A stretch of DNA of 64,000 bases from a virus. Lineage: Duplodnaviria; Caudoviricetes. Shown piece by piece: positions 13,185-26,466 of this stretch. Position numbers and translations under genes: made by a program. How positions within the stretch are numbered: position 1 is the stretch's first letter; each line of letters opens with the position of its first letter. Where the stretch lies: positions 128,001-192,000 of the IMG/VR virus record IMGVR_UViG_3300028886_000037. The stretch is one strand, 5' to 3'. The notes beneath the pieces are model-generated. The model worked only from the letters and a program-made list of their open reading frames with translations, searched no databases and was not told the DNA's origin.

Positions 13185-13874
13185 TTACCATTCCTTTGTG
13201 CCATCTGCGCCCTTGTGTTCGATCAGGGCTTCCATAGAGTCATACTTGACGTAGCCGCTTTCGTGAATCTTCGCAGCGCCGCTCTCGATAACAGCCTTGA
13301 TGTCTTCCCAGTCTGCCTTGAAGTCATCCACAGAAGTGTACTTCTTGCCGTTGATCTGGCACTGGAGATCGGGCCATTCCTGTTCGCAGTAGCCGTTCAC
13401 GTCGCGGCCCCAGCCGTAGTGAGTCGAAGAGTCGGTAGTGCGCTTCGGCTCGTAGACTCGAACGATCTCGTACCATTTGCCGTCTTGAGCCTTGTACATG
13501 AAAGCCGAGACCCAAGCGAGAGTCTGATGATGACCGTTTATGTGACCCTCATAGTTGGCGTAGACAGACGGATAGAGGAATTCGGCGGGCATAGAGTTCC
13601 AGGTCTCGGAGATCTTCTCCCACCGTTCGATCATCTTTGTCGCTTCGTTGTGAGCCTTGACGAGACGCTTTGCCTTGCGGATCTTCCTTGCGTTCTTGAC
13701 AGGATCAGTTTCCTTGTCGACGTTAGCAGTAGCGCGATCGGACTGCAGACGGAGCTTCTTTTCCTGTTCCCTCCAGTGTTCGAGAACCTTAGCGTTGTAA
13801 GCGCGACGGTCCTGACAGACGCAGTGCTTGCCAGTGAGTTCGTAGATGGAAGAGAGATCGGAAATAGTGACCAT
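13185..13874 (-). CDS. hypothetical early protein
   Basis: ORF after early promoter with AAGGAG RBS. Confidence 0.7.
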   Translation of the reverse strand: MVTISDLSSIYELTGKHCVCQDRRAYNAKVLEHWREQEKKLRLQSDRATANVDKETDPVKNARKIRKAKRLVKAHNEATKMIERWEKISETWNSMPAEFLYPSVYANYEGHINGHHQTLAWVSAFMYKAQDGKWYEIVRVYEPKRTTDSSTHYGWGRDVNGYCEQEWPDLQCQINGKKYTSVDDFKADWEDIKAVIESGAAKIHESGYVKYDSMEALIEHKGADGTKEW

Positions 13875-14045
13875 TGAAGGCTCCTTGTTGAAGTTACATG
13901 ATCAATATAGGTATTTCCCTGAGAAATCTAAACCCCTAAAATCAAGAAAATCTACAAAAATAGGCAGACACAGTCACTGCCATGTCTGCCTGTATCGTCC
14001 TATTTGGCCCAGAACGATATTTGTTTTTCGGCTTTATCTGTGTAG

Positions 14046-14130
14046 TCCTCCAGGAGAGACTCGAACTCTCACGGGCATATTGCCCACCTGCCCCTCAAGC
14101 AGGCCCCTATACCAATTCGGGTACCGGAGG
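14046..14130 (-). tRNA. tRNA-Leu(GAG)
   Basis: cloverleaf, CCTGC-TT GAG GG-GCAGG, long variable arm. Confidence 0.9.
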
Positions 14131-14134
14131 AAAA

Positions 14135-14277
14135 CGAGATTCATTTTAGCGGACCGCCTCCTTTAACCACTTGGATATCTCCGCGAATGAGGTTGTTATG
14201 CGGAGAGACAGGATTCGAACCTGCGAAGGCGCAAGCCAGCGGTTTTACAGACCCTGGGAATTGCTGTTAGAATCTCT
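14135..14277 (-). ncRNA. ACAGCA-scaffold RNA E1 carrying circularly permuted tRNA-Tyr(GTA)
   Basis: GAGATTC/GAATCTC terminal stem + ACAGCAA; tRNA 3' half precedes 5' half. Confidence 0.8.
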
Positions 14278-14279
14278 AG

Positions 14280-14352
14280 CAGGGAAGACAGGATTTGAAC
14301 CCATACCTCGCAGATTTGGAGTCTCGTGTGCTGCCAGTTGCACCACTTCCCT
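14280..14352 (-). tRNA. tRNA-Trp(CCA)
   Basis: CT CCA AA loop; AGGGAAG/CTTCCCT, G73; imperfect anticodon stem. Confidence 0.8.
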
Positions 14353-14469
14353 GAATGCCTCTTTTGATCAATTTCAGAACTTGATCCTGCTGGTGGTAGT
14401 TTTCGATCACAGTGAAGTATCTCGAATTCACTGCTCTCTAGAGCAGAGGCTGAACCTTATCATTCCATA

Positions 14470-14542
14470 TTGCCCGTGATGGACTCGAACCACCGAATAC
14501 ACGAGTCAGAGTCGTGTGCCTTACCAACTTGGCGAACGGGCA
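14470..14542 (-). tRNA. tRNA-Gln(CTG)
   Basis: CACGA-CT CTG AC-TCGTG. Confidence 0.9.
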
Positions 14543-14549
14543 GAAAAAC

Positions 14550-14932
14550 ATGATAGGGACGCCGATCGTTGCTCATTTAAGGCTTATTGATCAGCCGCTG
14601 CTTCGTGTCTCTTCTCTCTTGATCCGAATAGCAGCTTACAAAAGATCAGTCAACGGTTTCTCGTTGACGCTATCTGGTGTGACCAGCACTATCTCTATTC
14701 TTATTAGAGCAAGCACCAAGTTCTTCGTCTTGGAACTAGTAGAGACTGGCATGACCTTACTGAGCAGTTTGCCCAGGAGTTAGACCGATGTTCTGACCAT
14801 CAGCCAAGGGAGCTGAGATTCAAGCTGTGCTGCTCAGCTCTCGCCCTGTCCTCGTTAGCCAAGGCAATTTCCAGTTGCTCTACGCTGCATCGGTTTGTAG
14901 GAATTAAGCTTTAGAGTTGCTGTGCCTATCAT
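14550..14932 (-). ncRNA. ACAGCA-scaffold RNA E2 with ~360-nt structured cargo
   Basis: ATGATAGG/CCTATCAT stem + ACAGCAA; internal hairpins; no minus-strand ORF. Confidence 0.6.
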
Positions 14933-14936
14933 TAAG

Positions 14937-15069
14937 AATCTCTGATGACGCATTACTGAGCTATCCTTTACGCGTTCTCAGCCACTATTCCGCAACTTAT
15001 GCTACTGCACTAGCCCCAAAAGGATCTACCTTGGACGGGCTTTTACTTACATCATCTTCATCAGTGATT
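14937..15069 (-). ncRNA. GATGTAAGTA-type stem RNA, copy 1
   Basis: AATCACTGATGA/TCATCAGAGATT outer stem; motif shared with 20624-20677. Confidence 0.45.
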
Positions 15070-15072
15070 TAG

Positions 15073-15146
15073 TCCCATAGCCGAGATTCGAACCCGAACT
15101 TCATGCGCCACAAGCATGCGTGCTAACCAATTAACACTACTGCGGG
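15073..15146 (-). tRNA. tRNA-His(GTG)
   Basis: CATGC-TT GTG GC-GCATG. Confidence 0.85.
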
Positions 15147-15151
15147 GATGT

Positions 15152-15238
15152 GTAACGAGAGCGTGATGGTGGGCAGTTTAGAACTGCCAAGAATCCTTGC
15201 GGATCACCATCTTCATTTCACCATCACGTTCTCGTTAC
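15152..15238 (-). ncRNA. long hairpin enclosing a T-arm-like module
   Basis: 20-bp outer stem enclosing ATCC-GCAA-GGAT and GGCAG-TTCTAAA-CTGCC. Confidence 0.55.
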
Positions 15239-15242
15239 TTAG

Positions 15243-15316
15243 TAGCTCTGTCGGGACTTGAACCCGAATTTCTAGCTTGAGAGGCTAACGAACTAAACCA
15301 GTTATTCGACGGAGCC
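15243..15316 (-). tRNA. tRNA-Glu(CTC)
   Basis: TTAGC-CT CTC AA-GCTAG. Confidence 0.9.
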
Positions 15317-15321
15317 AAAGA

Positions 15322-15440
15322 CGAGATTCACTTTAGCGGGACTCGAACCCGTAACCTCTTCACTATTTCAGTGAAGTGCTCTACCAATTGAGCTATTTTC
15401 CCAACGGCGGAAAAAACCAGAGTTTGCTGTTGGAATCTCT
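15322..15440 (-). ncRNA. ACAGCA-scaffold RNA E3 carrying an acceptor-less tRNA body
   Basis: GAGATTC/GAATCTC + ACAGCAA; D arm, CTTCACT-GAAAT-AGTGAAG arm and T arm, no acceptor stem. Confidence 0.75.
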
Positions 15441-15442
15441 AG

Positions 15443-15514
15443 AGCACCTAGCGAGGATCGAACTCGCGACTACAGTTTGGAAGACTATCATGTTAGCCAC
15501 TACACCATAGACGC
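15443..15514 (-). tRNA. tRNA-Gly(TCC)
   Basis: CT TCC AA loop, U73. Confidence 0.9.
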
Positions 15515-15520
15515 GGATGT

Positions 15521-16210
15521 TTAATTTATAGAGGAGAGGGTGGGATTCGAACCCACGGAGGTTTCCTCCTCATATAATTTAGTAAAATCATTTCCATACT
15601 TATTTTCGACGTATTCTAAGTATGGCTTAATCTCTCTTTTCGTAATAATCGAAAGCTCTTTAGGAAATTGGTCATATTTTGCTTGCCACTGCTTAGACCA
15701 ATATCCCTTCAATTCAACATATTTTCCATCGACTATGAAGTCTGGAAGATAGTTATATTCTTTGCCTTCGAATATGTACTTAAACTTTTCTTTGTTCCTT
15801 TCGAATTTTATTCCGTGTTCAAGATTATATATCACGTATGCTAGTTCCCAAGAGCTGTCGCAGAAATATCCTTTATACCAACCCTTCTTTCCACGACCAG
15901 ATCCTTTACGATAGCCACCTAATGTGTGCCTAATCTTATTAGTCTCTTTTATCTTTTGTCGTGTTTCTTCCGTTTGGGCATGTTTCTTATATTCGACCCT
16001 TTCTGGATTCTTATAACATCTTTTTTCATGGAATCTCAGTGTATGCTTATATTCAAAATAGTTTCCGCAAAATTTACAATTTCCACCTTTATTAAATAGG
16101 AATTTCTTATGCTCTTTTTTATGATTTTCAGACTTATGTTTCTGAAGATCTCTTCTACTAGTACCGACATATTCACAGAATGAACATGGCCAAGTGTATG
16201 ATAATCTCAT
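15521..16210 (-). CDS. Zn-finger + PD-(D/E)XK homing endonuclease
   Basis: C2H2 fingers; DSSWE..YLPDF..VELKGY; AT-rich; reads into the tRNA fragment. Confidence 0.85.
   Translation of the reverse strand: MRLSYTWPCSFCEYVGTSRRDLQKHKSENHKKEHKKFLFNKGGNCKFCGNYFEYKHTLRFHEKRCYKNPERVEYKKHAQTEETRQKIKETNKIRHTLGGYRKGSGRGKKGWYKGYFCDSSWELAYVIYNLEHGIKFERNKEKFKYIFEGKEYNYLPDFIVDGKYVELKGYWSKQWQAKYDQFPKELSIITKREIKPYLEYVENKYGNDFTKLYEEETSVGSNPTLSSIN
15532..15571 (-). pseudogene. 3' fragment of disrupted tRNA-Ser
   Basis: variable arm, T arm and CCTCTCC, complementary to GGAGAGG at 16391-16397. Confidence 0.8.
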
Positions 16211-16230
16211 ATTACTCTCTCAAAGAAGTA

Positions 16231-16318
16231 AAGCGGGTGTCCGATTCGAACGGACGAGAGGTTTTAACCTCTGCTTGGGTTCAGGCCAAGTGCGATAAAC
16301 CAACTCCGCCAACCCGCC
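16231..16318 (-). tRNA. tRNA-Ser(TGA), nested inside the insertion
   Basis: CTTGG-CC TGA AC-CCAAG, long variable arm. Confidence 0.85.
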
Positions 16319-16354
16319 ATAAATTATTTATACAATCAAGACTAGTGCTTTTTG

Positions 16355-16397
16355 CCAGTTTCAAATCCGGATCCATAAACCACTCGGACACCTCTCC
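16355..16397 (-). pseudogene. 5' fragment of disrupted tRNA-Ser(TGA)
   Basis: GGAGAGG-TG-TCCGAGTGGTTTATGGA-TCCGGA TT TGA AA CTGG, then unrelated sequence. Confidence 0.8.
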
Positions 16398-16404
16398 AAA
16401 GTAG

Positions 16405-16492
16405 AGGCGGGTGCAGGATTCGAACCTGCGGCTCCTTTATGGGGAGCAACTCGTTAGCACCGAGCCGGTTTAGACCACTCACCCAACCCGCC
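16405..16492 (-). tRNA. tRNA-Ser(GCT)
   Basis: GCTCG-GT GCT AA-CGAGT, long variable arm. Confidence 0.9.
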
Positions 16493-16495
16493 ATA

Positions 16496-16569
16496 TCCAC
16501 CCGCTAGGACTTGAACCTAGAACCTCGGGGTTATGAGTCCCTTGCACCAACCAATTGTGCTACAGATGG
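16496..16569 (-). tRNA. tRNA-Met or Ile2 (CAT)
   Basis: CT CAT AA loop. Confidence 0.8.
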
Positions 16570-16574
16570 GAATC

Positions 16575-16707
16575 AAGATGTCATCTGTGCTCCCGGGGCT
16601 GGACTCGAACCAGCAGCCTTCTGGCGTCTTACTGAGGAAGGTCCTCTGCGACAGCCGTTCTAACCAGTTGAACGTACCCTGGAAAATAGAATTGCGGTTG
16701 ACATCTT
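16575..16707 (-). ncRNA. scaffold RNA E4 (ACCGCAA variant) carrying an Asn-like tRNA with an expanded anticodon arm
   Basis: AAGATGTCA/TGACATCTT stem; D and T arms intact, anticodon arm enlarged by about 20 nt. Confidence 0.7.
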
Positions 16708-16714
16708 TTATTAG

Positions 16715-16761
16715 AGCTACCAGCAGGACTCGAACCTGCGAAGGGATGAACCCAGCAGATT
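16715..16761 (-). pseudogene. orphan 3' tRNA half (U73, long variable arm; Cys-like)
   Basis: AATCTGC-variable arm-GCAGG TTCGAGT CCTGC-TGGTAGC-T, starting at the endonuclease stop. Confidence 0.75.
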
Positions 16762-17374
16762 ATAACAATTTACTGAGGATTCCCTCTATATAGGTTCGTT
16801 TAGCCTCTTTAGGAAGACGTTGGTATTCGGACCAATTACAGCGTCCTAATAGCGTCCATCCTTGCTCCTTTAAATTCTCTGTTCTTTCTTCATCATGTAA
16901 TTTTCCTTTTGATGTGTAATGCGTCTTGCCATCAACTTCAAAATAAAGCTTTTTATCAGGCCATGCAAAATCTAACCAATAGGGTTTTACATAATAGTTA
17001 TTTTCAAATTTTACGTTCTCATTTGTAAAAATGTTAAACCAACTTTGCTCAGCATAACTTCGTTTTCGTCTTCCTATCCATGAACTTGCGCGTCCTTCTC
17101 TATGTGCTTTTTTCATTCCGAGAGAAATTCTTTTGCATATAGCTTCGGTGTTTTTATGTCCTTTACATCGCAGCTTATTTGGATTCTTCTCGCAATGCAT
17201 TTCATGTCTAGTCATTTCACCACGAGTAATATGCTTGATTTTACCGCAGTATTTACATTTTAAATCATATTTAGGTGCTTGGCCATTTTTAATCTTATGT
17301 TCTTCGCTTTTATGCTTATAGAGCTTTCTACGTGATTCGATTTCAGCACCGCAATGTTCGCATACCCAAATCAT
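16760..17374 (-). CDS. Zn-finger + DUF559/Vsr-like homing endonuclease
   Basis: YWLDFAWP..FEVDGKTH. Confidence 0.85.
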   Translation of the reverse strand: MIWVCEHCGAEIESRRKLYKHKSEEHKIKNGQAPKYDLKCKYCGKIKHITRGEMTRHEMHCEKNPNKLRCKGHKNTEAICKRISLGMKKAHREGRASSWIGRRKRSYAEQSWFNIFTNENVKFENNYYVKPYWLDFAWPDKKLYFEVDGKTHYTSKGKLHDEERTENLKEQGWTLLGRCNWSEYQRLPKEAKRTYIEGILSKLL

Positions 17375-17396
17375 TTTTATTTCTCCATTTTAGCTT

Positions 17397-17478
17397 TATA
17401 GTCGTTCCAGCGACCATATTATTTATAGCAGTTAGAAGAACTGGAGATGTTCCTCAGCTGGCTGGAACCAGTTGTCCC
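17397..17478 (-). promoter_or_regulatory. structured endonuclease leader copy 2
   Basis: GGGACA-hairpin(TTCCAG)-CTGA-hairpin-CTAAC-TATAAATA-hairpin(CTGGAA). Confidence 0.7.
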
Positions 17479-17487
17479 ACTATAGTA

Positions 17488-17575
17488 AGCGCTCAGTTGG
17501 ATTTGAACCAACGTGGAGATTTCTCTCAGCGGCTTTGCAGGCCGTGGTCTTCGACCAGGCTCGACCCATGAGCGC
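17488..17575 (-). tRNA. tRNA-Cys(GCA) with long variable arm
   Basis: CGGC-CT GCA AA-GCCG, U73. Confidence 0.85.
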
Positions 17576-17586
17576 ATATTGTTTAG

Positions 17587-17660
17587 TACTCCGTCCAAGA
17601 TTCGAACTTGGATCAAGGGCTTCGTAGGCCCGTATGCTGAGTCCATTACACCAACGGAGC
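17587..17660 (-). tRNA. tRNA-Arg(ACG)
   Basis: CT ACG AA loop. Confidence 0.9.
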
Positions 17661-17665
17661 ATAGT

Positions 17666-17781
17666 CAAGATAACGTCTTTTGAGCTGAGTCCTGAGCCAC
17701 TAGACGACACCGGTATACGCCGATGACTGGATTCGAACCAGTGTTGCAGCTTTGGGATAGTGAAGATGCTGTTGTTATCTT
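17666..17781 (-). ncRNA. ACAGCA-scaffold RNA E5 carrying a circularly permuted tRNA (CCC, Gly-like)
   Basis: AAGATAAC/GTTATCTT; TCCCAA-AGCTG, T arm, acceptor closed by loop, D arm, CAGCT. Confidence 0.8.
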
Positions 17782-17785
17782 ATAG

Positions 17786-17868
17786 TCCTCCAGGAGGGAC
17801 TTGAACCCTCACGCCATTTCTGGCACCAGTTCCTAAGACTGGCGTGTCTGCGATTCCACCACCAGAGG
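17786..17868 (-). tRNA. tRNA-Leu(TAG)
   Basis: CCAGT-CT TAG GA-ACTGG. Confidence 0.9.
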
Positions 17869-17872
17869 ATAG

Positions 17873-17945
17873 TGCCACCCCTCCGTAACGATCGGAGATC
17901 CTCGGATTTTCAGTCCGTTGCATAGACCATCTTTGCTAGAGTGGC
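17873..17945 (-). tRNA. tRNA-Phe(GAA)
   Basis: CT GAA AA loop; atypical T loop ATCGTTA. Confidence 0.8.
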
Positions 17946-17950
17946 ATAAT

Positions 17951-18008
17951 CGAGATTCTTTTGTTTCTTAACCAAAAAGAAGATTTTAGAGTTGCTGTAA
18001 GAACCTCT
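17951..18008 (-). ncRNA. minimal ACAGCA-scaffold RNA E6
   Basis: GAGGTTCTT/AAGAATCTC + ACAGCAA. Confidence 0.65.
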
Positions 18009-18011
18009 TAG

Positions 18012-18085
18012 TCGGCAACCTTGGACTTGAACCAAGAACCTCTGCCTTATCAGAGCAGTGCTCTAACCAATTGAGCTAGATGCCG
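18012..18085 (-). tRNA. tRNA-Ile(GAT)
   Basis: CT GAT AA loop. Confidence 0.9.
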
Positions 18086-18096
18086 ATAAAAAATTT

Positions 18097-18165
18097 CAAG
18101 ATCCATTTTTCTAACGTAGTCTGATTACCAATCGGATGTTATAAGAATTTTGCAGTTAGGATCTT
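18097..18165 (-). ncRNA. scaffold RNA E7 (ACTGCAA variant)
   Basis: AAGATCC/GGATCTT stem. Confidence 0.6.
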
Positions 18166-18171
18166 TAGTAG

Positions 18172-18200
18172 TCTCCGATCAGGGATTCGAACCCCGGACC
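18172..18200 (-). pseudogene. 3' fragment of disrupted tRNA (Val-like)
   Basis: T arm + ATCGGAG-A, pairing with CTCCGGT at 18963-18969. Confidence 0.8.
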
Positions 18201-18211
18201 TGAAACTTTTA

Positions 18212-18285
18212 TCTTCGACCTAGGACTTGAACCTAGAACATCCGTCTTGTAAGGGCGGCGCTCTAACCAATTGAGCTAGCCGAAG
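18212..18285 (-). tRNA. tRNA-Val(TAC), nested inside the insertion
   Basis: CCGCC-CT TAC AA-GACGG; overlaps the endonuclease stop. Confidence 0.9.
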
Positions 18286-18919
18286 TTACGAACGATTTAA
18301 TTGATGAAATTGCCTCTGAAGTATTTCTCATTATGTACTTCCAAGTCAATCTCAGACATTTCCAACCGTTCTCTTTGCAATAAGTGTCTTTTTCGACATC
18401 CATTGCTTTTCTGCTGGGCCATTCATGTTGAGATCCATCAATTTCCAGATAGATCTTTAATTCTGGCCAAGCAAAATCCATGAACCATTTGCCAAAATGA
18501 TATTCTTCAACAAATGGAAAATTAGAAAGCTCCGTTTCGAGTAACCTCTTTGTCCATTCTTCAGCATAAGATCTTTTACATTTACTTCTCGACGACCACC
18601 AGATTCCGCCATTTTCTTTTATCTGTTTCTTACGAATTTCAGATAGCTTCTTCTTTGTGGCTTCAGTATGTTTAGATCCCAAGCGTAAGGCATTTTCGCC
18701 TGAATACCTTTTGCTAAAAGTTTCACTTGCTTGTTTTACTCTCGGATCATTATCCTTAGTTAGTCCTTTGTTCCAAGAAGGATGAGATTTAGAAAAGCCG
18801 TGTTCATCTTTGTGATGTTTCTGGAGTTCTCGTCTCGTTCTACCAACGAACGGACAATACTTGCAGCACCAGTCACCAGATGCGTTTTTCTGTTTTCTCT
18901 CTTTCTCATATCTTCCCAT
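18263..18919 (-). CDS. Zn-finger + NUMOD3 + DUF559-like homing endonuclease
   Basis: SWNKGLTK; WFMDFAWP..LEIDGSQH. Confidence 0.85.
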   Translation of the reverse strand: MGRYEKERKQKNASGDWCCKYCPFVGRTRRELQKHHKDEHGFSKSHPSWNKGLTKDNDPRVKQASETFSKRYSGENALRLGSKHTEATKKKLSEIRKKQIKENGGIWWSSRSKCKRSYAEEWTKRLLETELSNFPFVEEYHFGKWFMDFAWPELKIYLEIDGSQHEWPSRKAMDVEKDTYCKENGWKCLRLTWKYIMRNTSEAISSIKSFVTSASSIG

Positions 18920-18933
18920 ATTTTATTTATAGG

Positions 18934-18969
18934 AAGGATGGCACTCTGAACCAGCTGAGTTAACCGGAG
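18934..18969 (-). pseudogene. 5' fragment of disrupted tRNA (Val-like)
   Basis: CTCCGGT-TA-D arm-CCATC-CTT, then TATAAATA. Confidence 0.8.
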
Positions 18970-18975
18970 AGATAG

Positions 18976-19049
18976 TGCCCCACCAAGGACTTGAACCTTG
19001 AACTCTCTGCTTAAGAGGCAGATACTCTAACCAATTGAGTTAGTGAGGC
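18976..19049 (-). tRNA. tRNA-Lys(CTT)
   Basis: TCTGC-CT CTT AA-GCAGA. Confidence 0.9.
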
Positions 19050-19055
19050 ATATAG

Positions 19056-19128
19056 TTCCGGTAGCAGGGATCGAACCTGCGACTTTCTCCGTATGAAGGA
19101 GATGCTCTACCAACTGAGCTATACCGGG
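19056..19128 (-). tRNA. tRNA-Met(CAT)
   Basis: TCTCC-TT CAT AC-GGAGA. Confidence 0.85.
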
Positions 19129-19198
19129 GGGAAATCCACTGGCAGTTTGTGAGATACTGCCTAAACTCCTGAGGGCTACCTCAGAAAGCTAAAAGATA

Positions 19199-19270
19199 CG
19201 AGATAGAGTGGCCTTGCGCCACGAAACCGCATGATGGAGCAGAGGGGTGAAACTTGCTGTGTCTATCTCA
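19199..19270 (-). ncRNA. ACAGCA-scaffold RNA E8
   Basis: GAGATAGA/TCTATCTC + ACAGCAA; GCAA tetraloop hairpin. Confidence 0.65.
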
Positions 19271-19277
19271 AATTTAG

Positions 19278-19351
19278 TAGCGCCATCGGGACTCGAACCC
19301 GAATTTCCGACTTGAAAGGCCGGTGAACTGAACCAGTTATTCGATGGCGCC
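19278..19351 (-). tRNA. tRNA-Glu(TTC)
   Basis: CT TTC AA loop. Confidence 0.9.
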
Positions 19352-19356
19352 AAAAG

Positions 19357-19465
19357 CGAGATACGTTCTTTGTGTATAGCCCATCTGACTTTCGTCAGAC
19401 TTGCAGCTTTTCAGCTTATGGATTCGAACCACTTACAGTAAGAAATCATTGCTGTTTGTATCTCT
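19357..19465 (-). ncRNA. ACAGCA-scaffold RNA E9 with a T arm and two GAAA hairpins
   Basis: GAGATAC/GTATCTC; GTGG-TTCGAAT-CCAT; AGCT-GAAA-AGCT; TCTGAC-GAAA-GTCAGA. Confidence 0.7.
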
Positions 19466-19595
19466 TTTTCAAATGTGTCAGATACGGCGGATTCGAACCG
19501 CGATCTCAGACGTTGCGACATCTGGGACTTTTTGCACCGTCTCCACGACGGGACCGAAGCTACCTGCTTGTCAGAAGAGATAGAGTTCGCAACCT

Positions 19596-20414
19596 CTAAA
19601 ACTTCCTATCGGTACATATCCTACGCTTAGTAGCGGGACCGGGACTAGAGTCCCGGTCAGAAATGCTAAAACTTTCTTGAATTTTGATAGTCTGTAATAA
19701 TCTGAAAATTTCGTTTTCTCTTTCAATTTTAGAAAGTTTTTGAAATTCAGACCATCTAATTCTTTTTAAGAGCATCCAACCGTTTTCTATTAAAAATTCC
19801 GTTCTGATCTTGTCGTGTTCGATACCTTCTTTAGTATAGTGCTGTTCTCCATCAACTTCAATGTATATTTTTGATTTAGTCCATGCAAAATCTAAAGTAT
19901 ATCGGCCAACTTGATGTTGAGTTTCGGCATCTGTAAATATAGTTTCAAAATACTCTTCAGCATAAGATTTTCTTTTGTTTAACCAATTACAGTGTGTACC
20001 GCTAAGATTTTTAATAGCTGCATCTGATAATTTCCTTTTAGTTTCATCCGAAGTTTTATGACCTTGCCAAATTTGCTTATTCGGATTTTCTTTACAAAAC
20101 TTTTCGTGTCTTGTTAAATCGCAAGCTCTTTTATAAATTAAACCACAGAATTGACAAGGTATGTTTAAATCTGGATGATAGCCATAGAATTTACCTTTGA
20201 TTTCGTTAATATGTCCTTCTTTGCGATGCTGTTGTAATCTACTTCGTGAATGAAAATCATTGCCACAAATTGAACATTTCCAAATTTTAGAATTCTTTTG
20301 TATTCCTCTATTCGGATTTTTAAGACACTGCTTAGAAATGTGTGTTCCTAATTGTGCCCCAGTAGTAAACTCCATGTTACAAAATTTACATATATGTTTT
20401 ATTTCCAATTCCAT
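19596..20414 (-). CDS. multi-Zn-finger + DUF559-like homing endonuclease
   Basis: three C2H2-like fingers; YTLDFAW..IEVDGEQH; start MELEIK after TATAAATA. Confidence 0.85.
   Translation of the reverse strand: MELEIKHICKFCNMEFTTGAQLGTHISKQCLKNPNRGIQKNSKIWKCSICGNDFHSRSRLQQHRKEGHINEIKGKFYGYHPDLNIPCQFCGLIYKRACDLTRHEKFCKENPNKQIWQGHKTSDETKRKLSDAAIKNLSGTHCNWLNKRKSYAEEYFETIFTDAETQHQVGRYTLDFAWTKSKIYIEVDGEQHYTKEGIEHDKIRTEFLIENGWMLLKRIRWSEFQKLSKIERENEIFRLLQTIKIQESFSISDRDSSPGPATKRRICTDRKF
19631..19657 (-). pseudogene. degenerate 3' fragment of initiator-type tRNA
   Basis: CCGGG..CCCGG-TCCCGCT-A, same 3' end as the intact fMet. Confidence 0.55.
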
Positions 20415-20453
20415 ATAGTATTTATAACATGAGCTAACCACTGCTCTAAATTA

Positions 20454-20537
20454 TAGCGGGAGCCAGAGTCGGACTGGCACAAGCATTATCTGTCCCTGGG
20501 TTATGAGCCCAGTATCTTACCATTAGACTATCCCGCG
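20454..20537 (-). tRNA. initiator tRNA-fMet(CAT) with enlarged variable region
   Basis: C1 mismatch; CTGGG-CT CAT AA-CCCAG. Confidence 0.8.
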
Positions 20538-20544
20538 ATAATAG

Positions 20545-20619
20545 TGGACCGTAAGGGAATCGAACCCTTGACATCCAGCTTGCAAAGCTGGCGCTCTACC
20601 AAAACTGAGCTAACAGCCC
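20545..20619 (-). tRNA. tRNA-Ala(TGC)
   Basis: G3.U70; TT TGC AA. Confidence 0.9.
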
Positions 20620-20623
20620 GAAA

Positions 20624-20677
20624 GAATCTGTGAATGGCTCTGACCTCGAAAGGTTCTCCGTACTTACATCACAGATT
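20624..20677 (-). ncRNA. GATGTAAGTA-type stem RNA, copy 2
   Basis: AATCTGTGA/TCACAGATT outer stem. Confidence 0.45.
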
Positions 20678-20681
20678 TTAG

Positions 20682-20754
20682 CTGTCCCACCTGGACTCGA
20701 ACCAGGGACGGGGTGATTAACAGTCACCTACTCTACCAACTGAGCTATGGGACA
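20682..20754 (-). tRNA. tRNA-Asn(GTT)
   Basis: GGTGA-CT GTT AA-TCACC, G73. Confidence 0.9.
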
Positions 20755-20771
20755 TTAAAGATAAAGCCGAA

Positions 20772-20812
20772 GATTTCAATATGCAGATCGGATTCTCGAT
20801 CCAGATCTTTTT
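20772..20812 (-). promoter_or_regulatory. boxB/boxA-like leader (also 24049-24087 and 26360-26395)
   Basis: AGATC..hairpin..GATCTGCATATTGA repeated three times ahead of tRNA runs. Confidence 0.6.
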
Positions 20813-20894
20813 TGTTTGATTCTAATATAGAAACTTCTTTCGGGTTTGTAAACCCTCTTTCTCAGAATTTTTTGAGAAAGTTGTTTATTTATAG

Positions 20895-20967
20895 CTCCCT
20901 GTGGACGACTTGAACGACCGACATCGAAATTACAAATTTCGCGTTCTACCAACTGAACTAACAGGGA
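20895..20967 (-). tRNA. tRNA-Thr(TGT)
   Basis: CGAAA-TT TGT AA-TTTCG. Confidence 0.85.
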
Positions 20968-21052
20968 ATAAGAGCGCTGAGGATATGAGTGAAAAGCTAT
21001 CTCGAGTTCACAGTTCATCGGATATCCTCTCTAAGCATCCTCATCTTCACGT

Positions 21053-21127
21053 GATCGACGAGTGGATTGGAACCACCGCACCAGGCCCCGAATGGGCCTG
21101 CGCTCTACCATGCTGAGCTACGAAGAT
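21053..21127 (-). pseudogene. aberrant tRNA-like element (Pro-like)
   Basis: D and T arms present; 7-bp anticodon stem with 5-nt loop; poor acceptor stem. Confidence 0.55.
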
Positions 21128-21156
21128 ACGTCCTTGAATTCAGACGCTTAGATTAG

Positions 21157-21240
21157 TGGGTAAGGTAGGATTCGAACCTACTAAGCCCGAAGGCAACGGC
21201 TTTACAGGCCGCCCCAACTCACCATCGTTGGCGCTTACCC
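21157..21240 (-). tRNA. tRNA-Tyr(GTA)
   Basis: GCGGC-CT GTA AA-GCCGT, long variable arm. Confidence 0.9.
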
Positions 21241-21528
21241 TTGTACGGCCGGTCATTTATAGTCTTGTGACCGAAGACTTTACCCAACTCACGCTTATGC
21301 CGTTATTTTTCGCGATAGAACCATCACATGTGATGGTAGAATCGAATTCAAGATTCCAGCGGCCTGGTCAGGATGCTTATGCCTATGCTCTCCCCTGACT
21401 CCTTCACAGCCTTCGTCCGCTTGTCTATACGGACTTCTGCTGATCAACCAGTAAGCGCCCTTCCATTGGATCCAATTGACGGCGAAGTAGCGCTCAATGT
21501 AGCGGCCTTTGCAAGGATGGCGACTCCA

Positions 21529-22230
21529 CTATTGCCAGAGTCTCTCCTTCAATTCATAGCGGGACCGATGGGATTCGAACCCACAGCCTCCAGCCTTATT
21601 TTCATAAAGCATTTCTATTCGTTCAGTCCCGTATTTTTTATAAACGTACTCTAAATACTTTTTCATCTCTCTTCTATATAGGACGATTAACGGATATTTG
21701 AAAGTTCTTAATTTTTCCTCCCATCTATTATTTCTACGTCCTTTTATTTCATAATATGTATCGCCTATTTTAAAATCAGGATAGTATTTATGGATTTCTC
21801 CATTGCTTACATATTCAAAGCCTATTTTATTTCTCTCAAATTCTATTCCGTGATCTAAATTATAAATTACGAAAGCTAATTCCCAACGTGAATTGCAATA
21901 AAAGCCTTTATACCATCCAGAATAAATAGTACCAGATTTTTCTCTATAACCACCGCATCCAGCAGCTTTAGAAGTCTCTCTTAACTTCTCTTTTAATTCG
22001 TCCGTCATTCTATGCTTTCTATAGCAATCTTTACAAAATCCGGTCGAATTACGATTATCTAAAGATTTTCCGCAGTCTTTACAAAATCTCTTTTCAGTTT
22101 TTGAAAATAGTTTTGATAGTCTTCTCTTTAGTTCTTCTGTTCTTATTCTGCTATTAGCGCATGCTCTTGAGCAGAATCTTCCGCTTCCAAAAGAGCCATC
22201 ATGCTCTTTTCCACATTTTTCGCAGATCAT
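21529..22230 (-). CDS. Zn-finger + PD-(D/E)XK homing endonuclease
   Basis: CEKCG..RFCSRAC; NSRWE..YYPDF..YEIKGR. Confidence 0.85.
   Translation of the reverse strand: MICEKCGKEHDGSFGSGRFCSRACANSRIRTEELKRRLSKLFSKTEKRFCKDCGKSLDNRNSTGFCKDCYRKHRMTDELKEKLRETSKAAGCGGYREKSGTIYSGWYKGFYCNSRWELAFVIYNLDHGIEFERNKIGFEYVSNGEIHKYYPDFKIGDTYYEIKGRRNNRWEEKLRTFKYPLIVLYRREMKKYLEYVYKKYGTERIEMLYENKAGGCGFESHRSRYELKERLWQ
21560..21595 (-). pseudogene. orphan 3' half of tRNA (Asp-like)
   Basis: GGCTGG-AGGCT-GTGGG TTCGAAT CCCAT-CGGTCCC-G73, inside the endonuclease 3' end. Confidence 0.75.
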
Positions 22231-22254
22231 ATAGCCTCTTTTAACTTTATTTTA

Positions 22255-22339
22255 ACGAGGATCCTTCCATATCCTCGTATTATTTATAGAGGTTAGATCG
22301 AATGGCGAATTCGATCAGGAGGTGGAAGCCTCTTGTCCC
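22255..22339 (-). promoter_or_regulatory. structured endonuclease leader copy 3
   Basis: GGGACA-hairpin(CTTCCA)-CTGA-hairpin-CTAAC-TATAAATA-hairpin(TGGAAG). Confidence 0.7.
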
Positions 22340-22348
22340 TCTTTTTAA

Positions 22349-22422
22349 CGATGCCGGCGAGATTCGAACTCGCGTATGTCGGTTAGACAGACCGATGTGT
22401 TAGGCCACTTCACCACGGCACC
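22349..22422 (-). tRNA. tRNA-Asp(GTC)
   Basis: TCGGT-CT GTC TA-ACCGA, G73. Confidence 0.9.
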
Positions 22423-22427
22423 AGAGA

Positions 22428-23290
22428 CGAGATAGTTTTTCTTACGCGCTCTACCAGTTGAGCTACCTCACAGCATGGCTGCAAGGACGTTAAAATACAC
22501 ATCTCAATAATATCTTCCTATTAGTAATTTATCAGAACTAAAAGCCGATGAATTACAAATATATTCTTTATATTTTGGTATATAACACTTAAATAATCTT
22601 ACAATTTCTGGCAAAAGAGGAATGTTTTCTAATTTTGCAAATTCTCTAATTGACTTATAATTTCCAGAATGGAAATAGTCCCATAATTCCCTTGCTCTAT
22701 TAAATGCACTTATTTTACTTTTGTTAAAGAGTATACTATTTTCTCCTCTAAATAGATTTCTTCCAAGAACCCAATCCTTATTAGGTAAAATTTTGAATTT
22801 TTTGCATTCTCCATTGATTCTATTCGTATACCATTTAGTTCCGTATTGTGAATTTTTATTTCCTTTTTGTTTCAATTTCATACTTTCAGAAACGTATTTT
22901 GCAAATTCTGTTCTAAGCTTTTCGTATGCTCTAGAATTCATATAACGACTCTTATCTTCTGTAGGATGTCCTCTCATCCTCCAGAAGGCATACATCATTT
23001 TTCTTCTCTCATCTGTTCCCTTCTTGAATATCTTTACCAATAGCCAATGACAGAGGAAATGCTCTCTAGCAGTCAAAGGAACTAAGTTATCACGTTGATC
23101 CGATCCTCCTAAAGAACTAGGAAGAATATGATGTTCTTCATAATAACCTTCCGGTTTTCCTCTTATCTTTGCCCTATATACTATTTTCAGATAAACTTTT
23201 CTATAATCCATGTATTATTTATACATTTCATATCTCGAACCCGCAACATCGGTCTTAACAGGACATTTGAGAGTTGCTGTAACTACCTCT
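22428..23290 (-). ncRNA. ACAGCA-scaffold RNA E10 (permuted Asn-like tRNA) interrupted in its T loop by an HNH gene
   Basis: halves 23234-23290 and 22428-22489; GAGGTAGTT/AACTATCTC stem. Confidence 0.75.
22504..23211 (-). CDS. HNH homing endonuclease
   Basis: EEHHILPSSLGGSD..NLVPLTAREHFLCHWLL; TATAAATA upstream. Confidence 0.9.
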   Translation of the reverse strand: MDYRKVYLKIVYRAKIRGKPEGYYEEHHILPSSLGGSDQRDNLVPLTAREHFLCHWLLVKIFKKGTDERRKMMYAFWRMRGHPTEDKSRYMNSRAYEKLRTEFAKYVSESMKLKQKGNKNSQYGTKWYTNRINGECKKFKILPNKDWVLGRNLFRGENSILFNKSKISAFNRARELWDYFHSGNYKSIREFAKLENIPLLPEIVRLFKCYIPKYKEYICNSSAFSSDKLLIGRYY

Positions 23291-23340
23291 AAAATTCAAA
23301 CTGACCCTACTCACCTCAACGCGTCTTATTGGCTTTCAGT

Positions 23341-23412
23341 TAGCGCATGCGAGACTCGAACTCGCAGCCAGCGGCTTTCGACCGCCCGTTCTTCCATTGA
23401 ACGATATGCGTT
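23341..23412 (-). pseudogene. aberrant tRNA-like element (GAA in a non-canonical loop)
   Basis: D and T arms present; GGCGG-TC GAA AG-CCGCT lacks U33. Confidence 0.55.
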
Positions 23413-23427
23413 ATCAGTTAAACACAG

Positions 23428-23500
23428 CGCTGGAAGACAGGCTCGAACTGCCGATCGTCTGCTTACGAAGCAGCTGCTCTACCAGCTGAGCTATTCCAGC
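23428..23500 (-). tRNA. tRNA-Thr(CGT)
   Basis: TT CGT AA loop. Confidence 0.85.
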
Positions 23501-23700
23501 GAATAAGAGTACCGGACCCGAGTTTCTTTCCAGAGCGTCCTCTAGTCTTACGCTCGGGTCCTAGATCAAATCGTGCAGTATGGCAGTGAGGTTGGTCTCC
23601 TTCTCACATCTACGGCGCTAATGCTTAAATCGACCAAAGTGTCGAACCGTGCTCTTTTTATAGACATCTAAGCTATGCCTTGCACAATGTTGATCGTTAG

Positions 23701-23774
23701 TCGGGCATGCAGGATTCGAACCTGCGACCTGGTGCTCCCAAAGCATCCGCTCTACCAGACTGAGCTAATGCCCG
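23701..23774 (-). tRNA. tRNA-Pro(TGG)
   Basis: TT TGG GA loop; CGG/CCG-A acceptor. Confidence 0.9.
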
Positions 23775-23959
23775 ATGACGCCAGTACTAATTCTTGCATG
23801 AAAGTTCCTGACTTGCGAATCTCCTATACTGAAAGAAAATATATCCGCGACGATCGGATGCACTTTGTAGTCCACGTCCAGAGTATGCAACCTCCAGAGC
23901 GTAGAGCCTCTGTTCTTACCACAGTTCATTTTCTATCGCCAGTGTGATCGGCCATTTAG

Positions 23960-24033
23960 TGGACACAGATGGGGTTCGAACCCATGACCCTCTGCTTGCT
24001 AAGCAGATGTTCTACCAGCTGAACTACTGGCCC
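23960..24033 (-). tRNA. tRNA-Ala(AGC) with bulged acceptor
   Basis: TCTGC-TT AGC AA-GCAGA; G3.U70. Confidence 0.7.
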
Positions 24034-24167
24034 ATAAGAAGTTTCCGGTTTTTCAATATGCAGATCCGGTTCTCGACTGGATCTTTTGTTGTTGATCAAA
24101 ATATACTAAAACGAAGCGGAGTTGTAAATACCTCCGCTTCAAAAAATTTGAATTTTTTTGATGGAGG

Positions 24168-24575
24168 TTACCTGATAGGATCCTTGAGCATGTTTAGATA
24201 CTTCAGAGAGCAGAAGGCATCCTTCAGAACGTGGCGCTTGTTGTAGTACTTGATCTGCCATTCGAACTTGCGGTATGGACGGTAACCGAGCAGCTGAGCT
24301 TCTGTGCCGTCTTCGCAGCGGAACCAATGACCGATAGGACTCTGACCTTCTAGCGAAGTTCCCTTGAGCATATCCTTGAGCTGATCAAGAACATAGCCTG
24401 GAATCTTTGCGTCTCCCGAGGCGTCTACTTCTGCCAGCTCTAGAATGCACTTAGCTTCGTAGTCGCTGTACTTGAATGAGATTCCGTTGAGACGGAGGTT
24501 GTTCTCCTTTGCCCAGTCCTTGAGCACCGGATTGAGTTGTTCGCGGAGAGAGTCGCACTTGCTAGAATTGAACAT
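24168..24575 (-). CDS. hypothetical protein
   Basis: ORF with AAGGA RBS after TATAAATA. Confidence 0.65.
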   Translation of the reverse strand: MFNSSKCDSLREQLNPVLKDWAKENNLRLNGISFKYSDYEAKCILELAEVDASGDAKIPGYVLDQLKDMLKGTSLEGQSPIGHWFRCEDGTEAQLLGYRPYRKFEWQIKYYNKRHVLKDAFCSLKYLNMLKDPIR

Positions 24576-24608
24576 GTCTTTATCCTTGTTGTGTTTGTTT
24601 ATTTATAG

Positions 24609-24699
24609 TTGAGCAGGCTGGATTCGAACCAGCGACGGAGGAACTTCCTCTCTAGTGGCTTCAAAGGCCACCGCCTTGACCAGACTTGGCGACTGCCCA
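24609..24699 (-). tRNA. tRNA-Gln(TTG) with long variable arm
   Basis: GTGGC-CT TTG AA-GCCAC; U1-A72. Confidence 0.8.
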
Positions 24700-24705
24700 A
24701 GATAG

Positions 24706-24788
24706 TAGCCGAGGAGAGACTCGAACTCTCACGAGGTTGCCCTCCATGAATTTTAAGTTCACTGCGTCTTCCGTTCCGCCACTCGGCC
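24706..24788 (-). tRNA. tRNA-Leu(TAA)
   Basis: CT TAA AA loop, long variable arm. Confidence 0.9.
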
Positions 24789-24794
24789 AGATTC

Positions 24795-24986
24795 TTAGAA
24801 GAACTGGCGTTGTAACTTGAGCTGGCGCTTCTCAGCTTCGATCTTGTTTCGTTCCTTCTTGACCTTTCCGAGATCGATGCCTGCCTGCTTAGCGAAGCTC
24901 AGAGCCTTCTTTGACTGCTTAGCCCAGCGAGCGTTCTTCTGTTCCATCGTCTCTTCGACTCGTTCTTTCTTTTCCTTCGGTTTCAT
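24795..24986 (-). CDS. small basic protein
   Basis: 63-aa Lys/Arg-rich ORF, GGAG RBS, late promoter. Confidence 0.6.
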   Translation of the reverse strand: MKPKEKKERVEETMEQKNARWAKQSKKALSFAKQAGIDLGKVKKERNKIEAEKRQLKLQRQFF

Positions 24987-25019
24987 AAGATCTCCAAGTT
25001 TTTAGTGTTGTATTTATAG

Positions 25020-25091
25020 TGCGGGTGGCGGGGTTCGAACCCACGACTCGAAGATTAAAATTTAGTACTCTACCAACTGAGTTACACCCAC
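25020..25091 (-). pseudogene. tRNA-Lys(TTT) with broken anticodon stem
   Basis: acceptor, D and T arms intact; CTAAA cannot pair with TCTTC. Confidence 0.7.
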
Positions 25092-25200
25092 GAGTTCTGC
25101 TTCTTTATCCAAGGGATGCAGACAGACCTTGTACGATGAACGGCAGTTTGGTGTGAGCTCGTTCGGGGTATCATGTGAGCTCATTGCCGTTCGCTCATAG

Positions 25201-25280
25201 TACGCCAGGCGGGCTTCGAACCCGCATTTGCAGCTCCAGTTACGGCTAACGGATTAGAAGTCCGACCCGGCTACTGGCGT
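25201..25280 (-). ncRNA. D-armless tRNA-Arg(TCT)-like RNA
   Basis: acceptor, anticodon and T arms present; D-loop-like AACTGGA hairpin in the variable position. Confidence 0.7.
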
Positions 25281-25289
25281 ATGTGTTTC

Positions 25290-25574
25290 TTAGACGCGAG
25301 ATCGAATCTTCTTGAGATCGAACTTCATCGCGGGATAGGTGCAGAAGCCAGAGAAGCCGCAGACTTCGTCGAGTTCTTCAGCTACGCCGTCTTCCGTGAG
25401 AACTTTCACGATGTCGGGCCAGTTGTTGTCGTCAACGAAAGCGCAGTCTTTGGGGAGCTTTTCGCTCTGCCCTTGCAGATAGACGGTAGCGACGCCGTAA
25501 GGACTGCCATCGTCGTTGTTCGCCATCACAGCTAGAGTCTGGCCGTAGTCGTATTTCGATCTTACCCATTCCAT
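25290..25574 (-). CDS. DUF4313-like protein
   Basis: AFVDDNN..SGFCTYP..F motif. Confidence 0.7.
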   Translation of the reverse strand: MEWVRSKYDYGQTLAVMANNDDGSPYGVATVYLQGQSEKLPKDCAFVDDNNWPDIVKVLTEDGVAEELDEVCGFSGFCTYPAMKFDLKKIRSRV

Positions 25575-25577
25575 GTG

Positions 25578-25919
25578 TTAGTCCTCCAAGAAGTCTTCGA
25601 AGTGTTCTTCAGTGACCGGTTCCACGTACTCGTAATTGTCGGAGTGAACCGTAGTGCCGAGGAAGGTCTTGAAGTTGTTGGACCAGAAGCTGTCGCCGTC
25701 CACGTAAGCGTAGTACTTCGGGAAGCAGCCGACCTTCTGGTAGACGTGCTTCATGAGAGCCTTGCCCTCATCCACGTCCTTGACCGTAGCTTCGATTGCG
25801 TCATCTTGGCAGATAACTCCGAGCCAGGTCATGCGGGCAGTCGGATTGACTTCTTTAGCCGCAGCCTGAAGTTCTTTGAGGTGATTGGTTTTGCCGATGA
25901 AGACGATTCGAAAAAGCAT
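25578..25919 (-). CDS. hypothetical early protein
   Basis: ORF after early promoter. Confidence 0.65.
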   Translation of the reverse strand: MLFRIVFIGKTNHLKELQAAAKEVNPTARMTWLGVICQDDAIEATVKDVDEGKALMKHVYQKVGCFPKYYAYVDGDSFWSNNFKTFLGTTVHSDNYEYVEPVTEEHFEDFLED

Positions 25920-26018
25920 AGCTTATTTCCTTGTTGAAGGTTTATCTCTTTTACATTGTAATTATAGCTTTTTCTCGACGTTTTGTAAACCCCAAAAATG
26001 AAGTTTTTTTCAAAATAG

Positions 26019-26091
26019 TCAGCGTGAGTGGGAACGATCCACTGACCTCACCGCCCCGAACGGTGCGCTCTACCAGCTGAGCTACACGCTG
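26019..26091 (-). tRNA. tRNA-Pro(CGG)
   Basis: CACCG-TT CGG GG-CGGTG. Confidence 0.9.
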
Positions 26092-26098
26092 AAATTAG

Positions 26099-26174
26099 CT
26101 GGGAAGGCAGGATTCGAACCTGCGATTTCTAGGGCATTACAGTGCCGTGGCATACCAGACTTGCCGACAACCCA
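26099..26174 (-). pseudogene. aberrant tRNA (Gln-like body, 6-nt CTGTAA loop)
   Basis: D and T arms present; mismatched acceptor. Confidence 0.55.
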
Positions 26175-26180
26175 ATGTAG

Positions 26181-26255
26181 TGGAGACGAAGGGAATCGAA
26201 CCCTTCACAGCCTGATTGCAAGTCAAGCTCGCCATCCTTGGTAACATGCATCCCC
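26181..26255 (-). tRNA. tRNA-Ala(TGC) copy 2, atypical D arm
   Basis: GGGGATG/CGTCTCC-A; CT TGC AA. Confidence 0.75.
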
Positions 26256-26259
26256 ATAG

Positions 26260-26342
26260 TCGGTACGGAAGGACTCGAACCTTCACGCCTTGCGGCATTC
26301 GATTTTGAATCGAACGTGTCTACCCTATTCCACCACGTACCG
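26260..26342 (-). tRNA. tRNA-Leu(CAA)
   Basis: TTCGA-TT CAA AA-TCGAA. Confidence 0.9.
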
Positions 26343-26404
26343 ATAAAGATAAAGCCGAATTGTCAATATGCAGATCTGCTTCACGAGCCGATCTTGTAGG
26401 TATC

Positions 26405-26439
26405 AAAAGAAAAAGAGGAAGTCGAACTGACTTCCTCTT
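26405..26439 (-). terminator. intrinsic terminator with a competing antiterminator
   Basis: AAGAGGAAGTC-AGTTC-GACTTCCTCTT-TTTCTTTT. Confidence 0.8.
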
Positions 26440-26466
26440 GAAATTTCGATACCAGATGGAAGTCAG

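Follow-up and report, generated by a model that had tools for sequence, protein, structure and literature searches.

When a serine tRNA gene of a phage is cut in two, and a nuclease gene and a second tRNA gene with the same anticodon lie between its halves, what has happened to the gene? The interruption may be an intron, with the outer tRNA still being made by splicing, or it may be a mobile element which has broken the gene and brought a replacement for it. We argue here for a free-standing homing endonuclease cassette that lies within the phage's own tRNA-Ser(UGA) gene, splits this resident gene and supplies a resistant copy in its place, a reading to which we give a probability of about 0.8.

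The stretch of DNA that was analysed, here called the window, is 64,000 nt long and represents bases 128001-192000 of a 247,923-bp IMG/VR phage record, which is about 98% complete. A tRNA array occupies ~13.9-27.5 kb of the window, all of it on the minus strand, with 37 tRNA genes called by ARAGORN in the window. Seven ORFs of 204-281 aa and lower G+C are interspersed among the array tRNAs, and Pfam or PHROGs matches mark six of them as endonuclease-like. The array is ~13.6 kb long in this phage, as against ~6 kb in its sisters.

These sister contigs, labelled with L numbers below, were reached through a protein index, starting from homologues of the neighbouring 229-aa protein (13185..13874), which share 83-96% identity. 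BLASTN of the locus against 50,697 phage records returned nothing beyond generic tRNA-level matches, and scans of viral contigs with exact patterns (the 5' part, and a guessed intact anticodon arm) and with the neighbour protein gave no match. A looser pattern of acceptor and T arm matched ten unrelated phage tRNA-Ser genes, which shows only that such a combination is common in tRNA-Ser.

Other genes of the window also concern tRNA. A tRNA with the anticodon UUA, which would read the UAA stop codon, is encoded at 25019-25091 (minus strand), and recurs in related arrays (L003 2002-2076, L034 1548-1622, L042 268-363). A CCA-adding tRNA nucleotidyltransferase at 38016-39266 (minus strand; PHROG 2244, E 4e-56) fits tRNA genes without an encoded CCA, and is adjoined by a TnpB-type transposase of 555 aa at 40700-42367 (minus strand; PHROG 506, E 1e-44).

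The split tRNA gene and its intact sister allele

The features of the locus are as follows, all on the minus strand.

16404..16492, minus: tRNA-Ser(GCU), upstream flank, syntenic; predicted homology arm in common with nuclease-free sisters
16354..16397, minus: resident-gene (type A) 5' remnant with acceptor strand GGAGAGG, D arm and decayed anticodon arm; about positions 1-44 of the intact gene
16319..16353, minus: cassette leader, containing the box TATAAATA at 16332..16325, 6 nt 5' of the inner tRNA
16231..16318, minus: inner (type B) tRNA-Ser(UGA), called by ARAGORN and Rfam (44.8 bits); loop CCUGAAC (C33, C38), G1-U72
15521..16210, minus: putative homing endonuclease ORF of 229 aa, consisting of the native 214 aa (16210..15569, ending ..KLYE) and 15 tail codons
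15532..15568, minus: type A 3' remnant with shortened variable arm, T arm, CCTCTCC and discriminator U; positions 45-88
15442..15514, minus: tRNA-Gly(UCC), downstream flank, with a Gly(GCC)-type 5' end

The outer acceptor strands, GGAGAGG (16397..16391) and CCTCTCC (15539..15533), pair at 7/7 positions, exactly at the coordinates given in the original prediction, and are correctly spaced from the D arm and the T arm (GTGGG TTCGAAT CCCAC). Between the remnants lies an insert of 785 bp (16353..15569), close to the ~780 bp first estimated, which comprises the leader, the inner tRNA-Ser(UGA) and the nuclease gene.

An intact 88-nt tRNA-Ser(UGA) gene without a nuclease ORF is present at the syntenic place in L029 (4095-4182), L024 and L025. 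It sits between Ser(GCU) and Gly(GCC), folds as a perfect cloverleaf, and belongs to arrays that are collinear with the window array and have no ORF in the tRNA-Ser(UGA) locus. Because this allele aligns with both parts of the window gene, the two halves represent one gene, which disposes of the possibility that they come from different genes. The comparison with the empty allele, which had been proposed as the way to define the junctions, places the break point at 44/45, where the anticodon stem meets the variable arm. Relative to L029, the first 31 nt of the 5' remnant are identical and its anticodon arm has three substitutions and one missing base; the 3' remnant lacks 5 nt (CTTCA) of the variable loop, and its last 34 nt and the next spacer are identical. 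A break inside the anticodon loop with deletion of the 3' stem strand was considered and rejected, as the sister alleles identify CTGG(C) as the decayed 3' stem strand.

The locus is polymorphic for the presence of the insert, being filled in the window, L016 and L017 and empty in L029, L024 and L025. The Ser(GCU) flank is identical at 89/89 positions to that of L016, L017 and L029, and at 88-89/89 across the filled and empty alleles compared. An assembly artefact is ruled out, since the identical split architecture recurs in the independent assemblies L016, L017 and L018-L021. Deletion from a split allele could not have produced the intact one, which contains the 1 + 5 nt absent from split alleles. 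With one anticodon-loop base and 5 variable-loop nt missing, the old type A gene is dead.

The remnants also differ between split alleles. The anticodon loop reads TTTGAAA in the window, TCTCCAA in L016/L017 and CTTGATA in L018, and L016 and L017 carry an identical nuclease beside a different remnant stem (CCAG vs CCGG). In L018 the T stem has lost one base and the acceptor strands are unpaired. From these sequences, the outer halves are pseudogene parts.

An intron remains to be weighed against this, that is, a self-splicing or otherwise spliced element with a nuclease ORF and a nested tRNA, from which the outer tRNA would still be made. Bacterial tRNA genes do get interrupted by group I introns with homing endonucleases (PMC3984707), and the outer acceptor strands have kept their full pairing. 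Rfam cmscan with permissive filters over 13500-28500, however, gave no group I or II intron at E <= 1, only tRNAs and chance matches, and the intron mode of ARAGORN found the inner tRNA and no intron-bearing tRNA. When the halves were precisely rejoined in silico, all four split alleles tried (window, L016, L017, L018) were called 'tRNA-???' with a 2-base anticodon, which represents a 6-nt anticodon loop, and they have a shortened variable arm; the intact L029 allele, run as a control, was called tRNA-Ser(tga). Neither the varying anticodon, which is UGA in the window and not in L016/L017, nor the unpaired T stem and acceptor of L018 suits a gene that is still spliced, and in L037 and L003 the remnants are gone entirely. 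A spliced outer product is very unlikely on these grounds, and the intron explanation as a whole is hardly tenable. An intein is impossible, given that the target is an RNA gene. The empty allele, the missing ribozyme and the 6-nt loop together uphold the view first taken of this locus, namely a nuclease cassette with its own Ser(UGA) inside a resident Ser(UGA), and no intron.

The downstream flank differs as well. In all sisters Ser(UGA) is followed by a tRNA-Gly(GCC) that the window lacks, and the 5' end of the window Gly(UCC) is of the Gly(GCC) type (GCGTCTATGGTGTA), resulting in two G-U pairs in the acceptor stem. This looks like a deletion by recombination between two Gly genes, adjoining the nuclease stop codon.

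The inner tRNA and the nuclease

The second tRNA-Ser(UGA) is, as had been noticed, quite different from the first, with 61/88 positions alike (69% identity). It is the sole Ser(UGA) that ARAGORN calls in the window; the type A 5' end has a single occurrence in the 248-kb genome, which leaves the inner gene as the one tRNA-Ser(UGA) of this phage. Covariation was assessed on eight distinct inner-tRNA variants, drawn from the cassettes and L031. Ninety-nine per cent of the cloverleaf cells pair, with compensatory changes in seven pairs over four helices, while slid controls gave at most two pairs changed on both sides. RNAalifold alone did not recover the cloverleaf for the inner tRNA, so pairs were counted on the specified cloverleaf. 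Judged by this covariation, the inner tRNA is probably functional.

An inner-type tRNA lies 5' of the nuclease gene at every homologue locus opened, down to 58% nuclease identity (77-90% in L016-L023, 70% in L037, 63% in L033 and L034, 60% in L042/L043, 58% in L003 and L035). These pairs include loci outside tRNA arrays. One such pair, in L035/L036 (851-1720), is flanked by a kinase-like gene and by SprT-like and metallophosphatase genes, with a tRNA-nuclease spacer of 120 nt and a loop with a normal U33. The type B tRNA also occurs alone, as a resident array member of L031 without a nuclease.

The anticodon loop of the inner tRNA (16277-16283, minus strand) reads CCUGAAC, with C33 in the place of U33. 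U33 is found in 34 of the 37 tRNA calls of the window, and the C33 loop is kept in seven of the eight inner variants, including the nuclease-free L031; L035 has CUUGAAC. As C33 replaces a near-universal U33, the decoding competence of the inner tRNA is assumed from its conservation. The C33 loop could be an immunity mark at the level of DNA, an anti-defence change at the level of RNA, or both.

All close cassettes (L003, L016-L021, L034, L037, L044) share a conserved leader. Its box TATAAATA, which we take to be the T4 late-promoter box, agrees with the late promoter that had been reported in the insert. In the window the box has 19 occurrences, where 1.1 would be expected, and 17 of these are on the coding strand; all six endonuclease-like ORFs of the array have one, either just 5' of them or at their start. 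It would presumably act as a working late promoter in this phage. Scans for sigma-70 promoters and intrinsic terminators over 15300-16600 stayed at chance level.

The nuclease ORF, which ends ..LYE/EETSVGSNPTLS/SIN*, crosses what were the variable arm, T arm and acceptor strand of the old tRNA. It lacks the native stop in the window, and the tail takes 12 codons from the old tRNA part and 3 from the spacer. The frame thus does pass through the old T arm, as the original prediction had it; its further claim, that the stop codon comes from the target site, does not hold, for the TAA (15523..15521) lies in the old intergenic spacer, 9 nt beyond the old tRNA, and is also present 3' of the intact allele.

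The family has more than 1000 homologues. Members of the cluster that are at least 90% identical either end exactly at LYE or run into at least three different downstream sequences, and versions with such identity, which are spread over several different backbones, occur in four contexts: a native stop after LYE, the type A tail, the tail of another tRNA-Ser, and a fusion. The last refers to P0142 (343 aa; cluster of P0001; >=90% identical), in which ~130 unrelated Lys/Arg-rich residues follow LYE; this extension is either a fourth downstream context or a fusion. The dN/dS of the nuclease is 0.10-0.17, and the gene is under purifying selection.

The nuclease that had been proposed for the insert is borne out by motif, profile and fold. 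The N-terminal 75 residues contain two CxxC...HxxxH fingers, which match C2H2 fingers (CTCF). In residues 100-214, the motif P156 D157 ... E166-x-K168 is invariant in 40 homologues, and the family profile matches T7 endonuclease I at E 8e-5. The AF2 model (pLDDT 87.5) had no Foldseek match in the PDB at E <= 0.001; VIA-align of residues 100-214 matched the folds of TnsA (Z 6.1), Bax1 (Z 5.7), I-Bth0305I (Z 5.4) and Vsr (Z 4.6). The fold assignment is based on VIA-align, with middling scores of Z 5-6, together with the profile match and the motif. Some homologues carry a precomputed match to Pfam PF05367 (Phage_endo_I); the window protein scores 19.6 bits, below the gathering threshold of 29.1, and is for this reason assigned to the PD-(D/E)xK superfamily and not to the family. 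The GIY-YIG family is absent among its Pfam and PHROG matches.

Signs of mobility of the cassette, and similar cassettes in the array

We propose the following cycle. Late in a mixed infection, the nuclease would cut, within the anticodon arm or next to it, the type A tRNA-Ser of a phage that has no cassette, and the break would be repaired from the cassette-bearing genome. Since the old tRNA parts and the neighbouring tRNA genes would serve as homology arms, the whole cassette would be copied in. The inner tRNA would be spared because it differs at the presumed site (..CCTGAACCCAAG.. vs ..CTTGAAAACCGG..), and would take over the lost function, so that the splitting of the gene would cost the phage nothing. 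The replacement tRNA would play the part that splicing has for intron-borne endonucleases. We infer all of these steps: cleavage, resistance of the inner gene to it, function of the tRNA, and drive.

The remnants bear on whether the cassette still moves. The neighbouring backbone gene has a dS of 0.14-0.19 among the window, L016, L017 and L029, and the nuclease has a dS of 0.31 between the window and L016. In ~65 remnant nt away from the junction there are no changes among the window, L016, L017 and the intact alleles, where about a dozen would be expected under old drift; all remnant changes fall within ~15 nt of the left junction and in the variable loop by the right junction. Such pristine distal remnants are the pattern expected of recent or repeated homing with short co-conversion tracts. 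Scars close to the junction would travel with the cassette, and the distal parts would come from fresh, functional recipient alleles. The distal identity could instead mean that the remnants serve some purpose under selection.

A single old illegitimate insertion, inherited vertically with an immobile nuclease, would leave the structure as a fossil, and it would account for the same junctions and the same two deletions in all split type A alleles. It fits poorly with distal remnants that are identical to the functional allele despite a backbone dS of ~0.18, and with a nuclease dS above that of the backbone. Filled and empty alleles are moreover interleaved, the closest sister, L029 (neighbour protein 96% identical), being empty, and near-identical nucleases under the selection noted above occur in several contexts. 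We regard the fossil as quite improbable. The homing cassette also fits L044, whose backbone is different: an identical leader and a nuclease of at least 90% identity are flanked there by what remains of another tRNA-Ser allele, again with the edge CTGGC. Relatives that retain the 3' remnant only (L022/L023, L033), or none (L037, L003), appear to show later stages.

The array holds further cassettes, which were mapped against the nuclease-free L029 array. Those in Val, Asp and Cys genes follow the Ser design; their breaks, at positions 36-44, likewise lie on the 3' side of the anticodon arm.

16711-17575, minus: Cys cassette; old 3' part 16756..16714 represents positions 44-86, 43/43 identical
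18171-18969, minus: split tRNA-Val; old 5' part 18969..18934 (36/36 identical to L029), old 3' part 18208..18171
18919..18263, minus: nuclease of the Val cassette, DUF559/Vsr-type, 218 aa
18285..18212, minus: new tRNA-Val(UAC)
19596-20538, minus: Met cassette, a decayed version; 281-aa nuclease, new 86-nt tRNA-Met, decayed old 3' end 19656..19630
21529-22423, minus: Asp cassette; old 3' part 21594..21559 represents positions 41-76, 36/36 identical

In the Asp and Cys cassettes a new tRNA is followed by the nuclease and then by the untouched old 3' part, and no old 5' part is left. The Val cassette has its nuclease gene first, with an overlap of 23 nt into the start of the new tRNA, and the new tRNA of the Met cassette is unusually long. 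The nuclease of the Asp cassette is paralogous to that of the Ser cassette (39-42% identity), and its frame also runs into the 3' part of the old tRNA. It has a different zinc-binding head, which suggests that the head sets the choice of target. By comparison with L029, a separate HNH homing endonuclease (22504-23211, minus strand; PHROG 655, E 4e-40) is also inserted between the genes for tRNA-Phe and tRNA-Asp.

The driver could also be the inner tRNA itself, as an anti-defence allele (C33, C38) that escapes a host anticodon nuclease; selection on it would then spread the cassette, with the endonuclease as passenger or vehicle. Anticodon-loop changes let phage tRNAs evade tRNA-cutting defences (PMC10264068), Septu is defeated by SegB-linked tRNA amplification (PMC13096335), and the C33 loop is kept in seven of eight variants, even where the nuclease is lacking. 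Left unexplained are the position of the cassette inside a resident gene and the scars at the junction, the same design at four other tRNA identities with two nuclease folds, and the purifying selection on the nuclease. As the driver, the tRNA seems unlikely; its anti-defence role is compatible with the homing cassette as an added benefit and is not an alternative to it.

Known systems and meaning for phage tRNA arrays

SegB of T4/T6, like the nuclease of the Ser cassette, is encoded by a free-standing gene in the company of phage tRNA genes; it cuts within such genes and promotes the inheritance of its own tRNA region (PMC2330249, PMC13096335). The genes that it cuts belong to relatives without SegB, and it spreads with adjacent tRNA genes by recombinational repair in mixed infection and is widely associated with tRNA arrays. 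SegB is a GIY-YIG enzyme that reads a T-loop motif and lies between genes, whereas the Ser cassette encodes a zinc finger and PD-(D/E)xK protein, has its break beside the anticodon arm, and lies inside the target gene with both halves kept. Unlike SegB, the cassette also has, as a constant component, a replacement tRNA whose anticodon matches that of the split gene.

The fungal mitochondria of Allomyces and Glomus contain mobile ORFs that replace gene ends in atp6, atp9, cox2 and nad3 (PMC3630166). There, as in the cassette, an endonuclease gene arrives together with a divergent foreign version of its target, leaving the native sequence stranded further downstream and nearly unchanged from relatives that have no element; the atp6 insert likewise comes without its own stop codon (PMC3630166). 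At the present locus the divergent copy is linked to the nuclease gene, and the displaced native copy equals that of L029 outside the junction zone. In the mitochondrial type only the 3' end of a protein gene is replaced, fused in frame (PMC3630166), whereas the cassette carries a complete RNA gene with its own promoter box and leaves both old halves in place. No hybrid gene exists at the locus, as the inner tRNA is a whole gene and makes no use of the native 5' part.

T4 SegF and other seg/mob genes need no intron or intein, as in the cassette; in homing of the SegF type, the donor escapes cutting because its target copy differs in sequence, and markers on the flanks are co-converted (PMC2988022). 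The classical element adjoins an intact resistant target, whereas in the window the sensitive gene is split and the candidate resistant copy is nested within it. Arrangements similar to the classical seg/mob type do occur in the relatives L037 and L003.

In synthetic Cleave-and-Rescue (ClvR), a nuclease destroys a needed resident gene and is tightly linked to an uncleavable version of it (PMC6442612). ClvR is engineered, uses Cas9, stays at a fixed locus and does not home; the cassette is natural and protein-guided, and would insert at the cut.

The homing enzyme I-Ssp6803I, of the PD-(D/E)xK type, belongs to a group I intron in tRNA-fMet, a gene interrupted near the anticodon. I-Bth0305I (PDB 3r3p), a homing enzyme of the PD-(D/E)xK fold, is likewise from a group I intron. 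Group I introns restore the gene by splicing, whereas the cassette has no detectable ribozyme and would restore function by a spare gene.

SegB is the established case of an endonuclease that cuts phage tRNA genes and carries neighbouring ones with it, and fungal mitochondria provide known cases of an imported foreign copy. The Ser cassette is new in combining the two on an RNA gene, in nesting its tRNA between two retained halves, in joining a single nuclease lineage stably to a single rescue tRNA, and in its architecture of zinc fingers plus PD-(D/E)xK domain. Introns and inteins are two means by which a homing endonuclease can live inside an essential-type gene without harm to its carrier; a spare, uncuttable copy would be the third, and gene-drive engineers have reached this design independently. 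The nuclease cassettes account for a window array of twice the sister length, and for the orphan tRNA halves in the array, which are overlooked or miscalled by annotation pipelines.

A wider view, which we hold tentatively and at somewhat less than even odds, is that phage arrays harbour a natural 'home-and-rescue' drive, with modular nucleases each tied to a cleavage-resistant tRNA of the identity that it destroys, and with the odd anticodon loop of the rescue tRNA (C33, C38) as a DNA-level immunity mark against the nuclease that it travels with. At least five tRNA identities are affected in this genome. If this is true, variable zinc-finger heads would be placed on PD-(D/E)xK or Vsr-like bodies, tRNA alleles would be replaced one by one across the phage population, and C33/C38 might also resist host anticodon nucleases, tying the drive to the evolution of anti-defence. 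Type A DNA, the predicted target, and type B DNA, predicted to be immune, form a pair for mapping recognition by the zinc finger and PD-(D/E)xK protein. The tRNA alleles of phages may reflect selfish drive, besides codon use or the evasion of defence.
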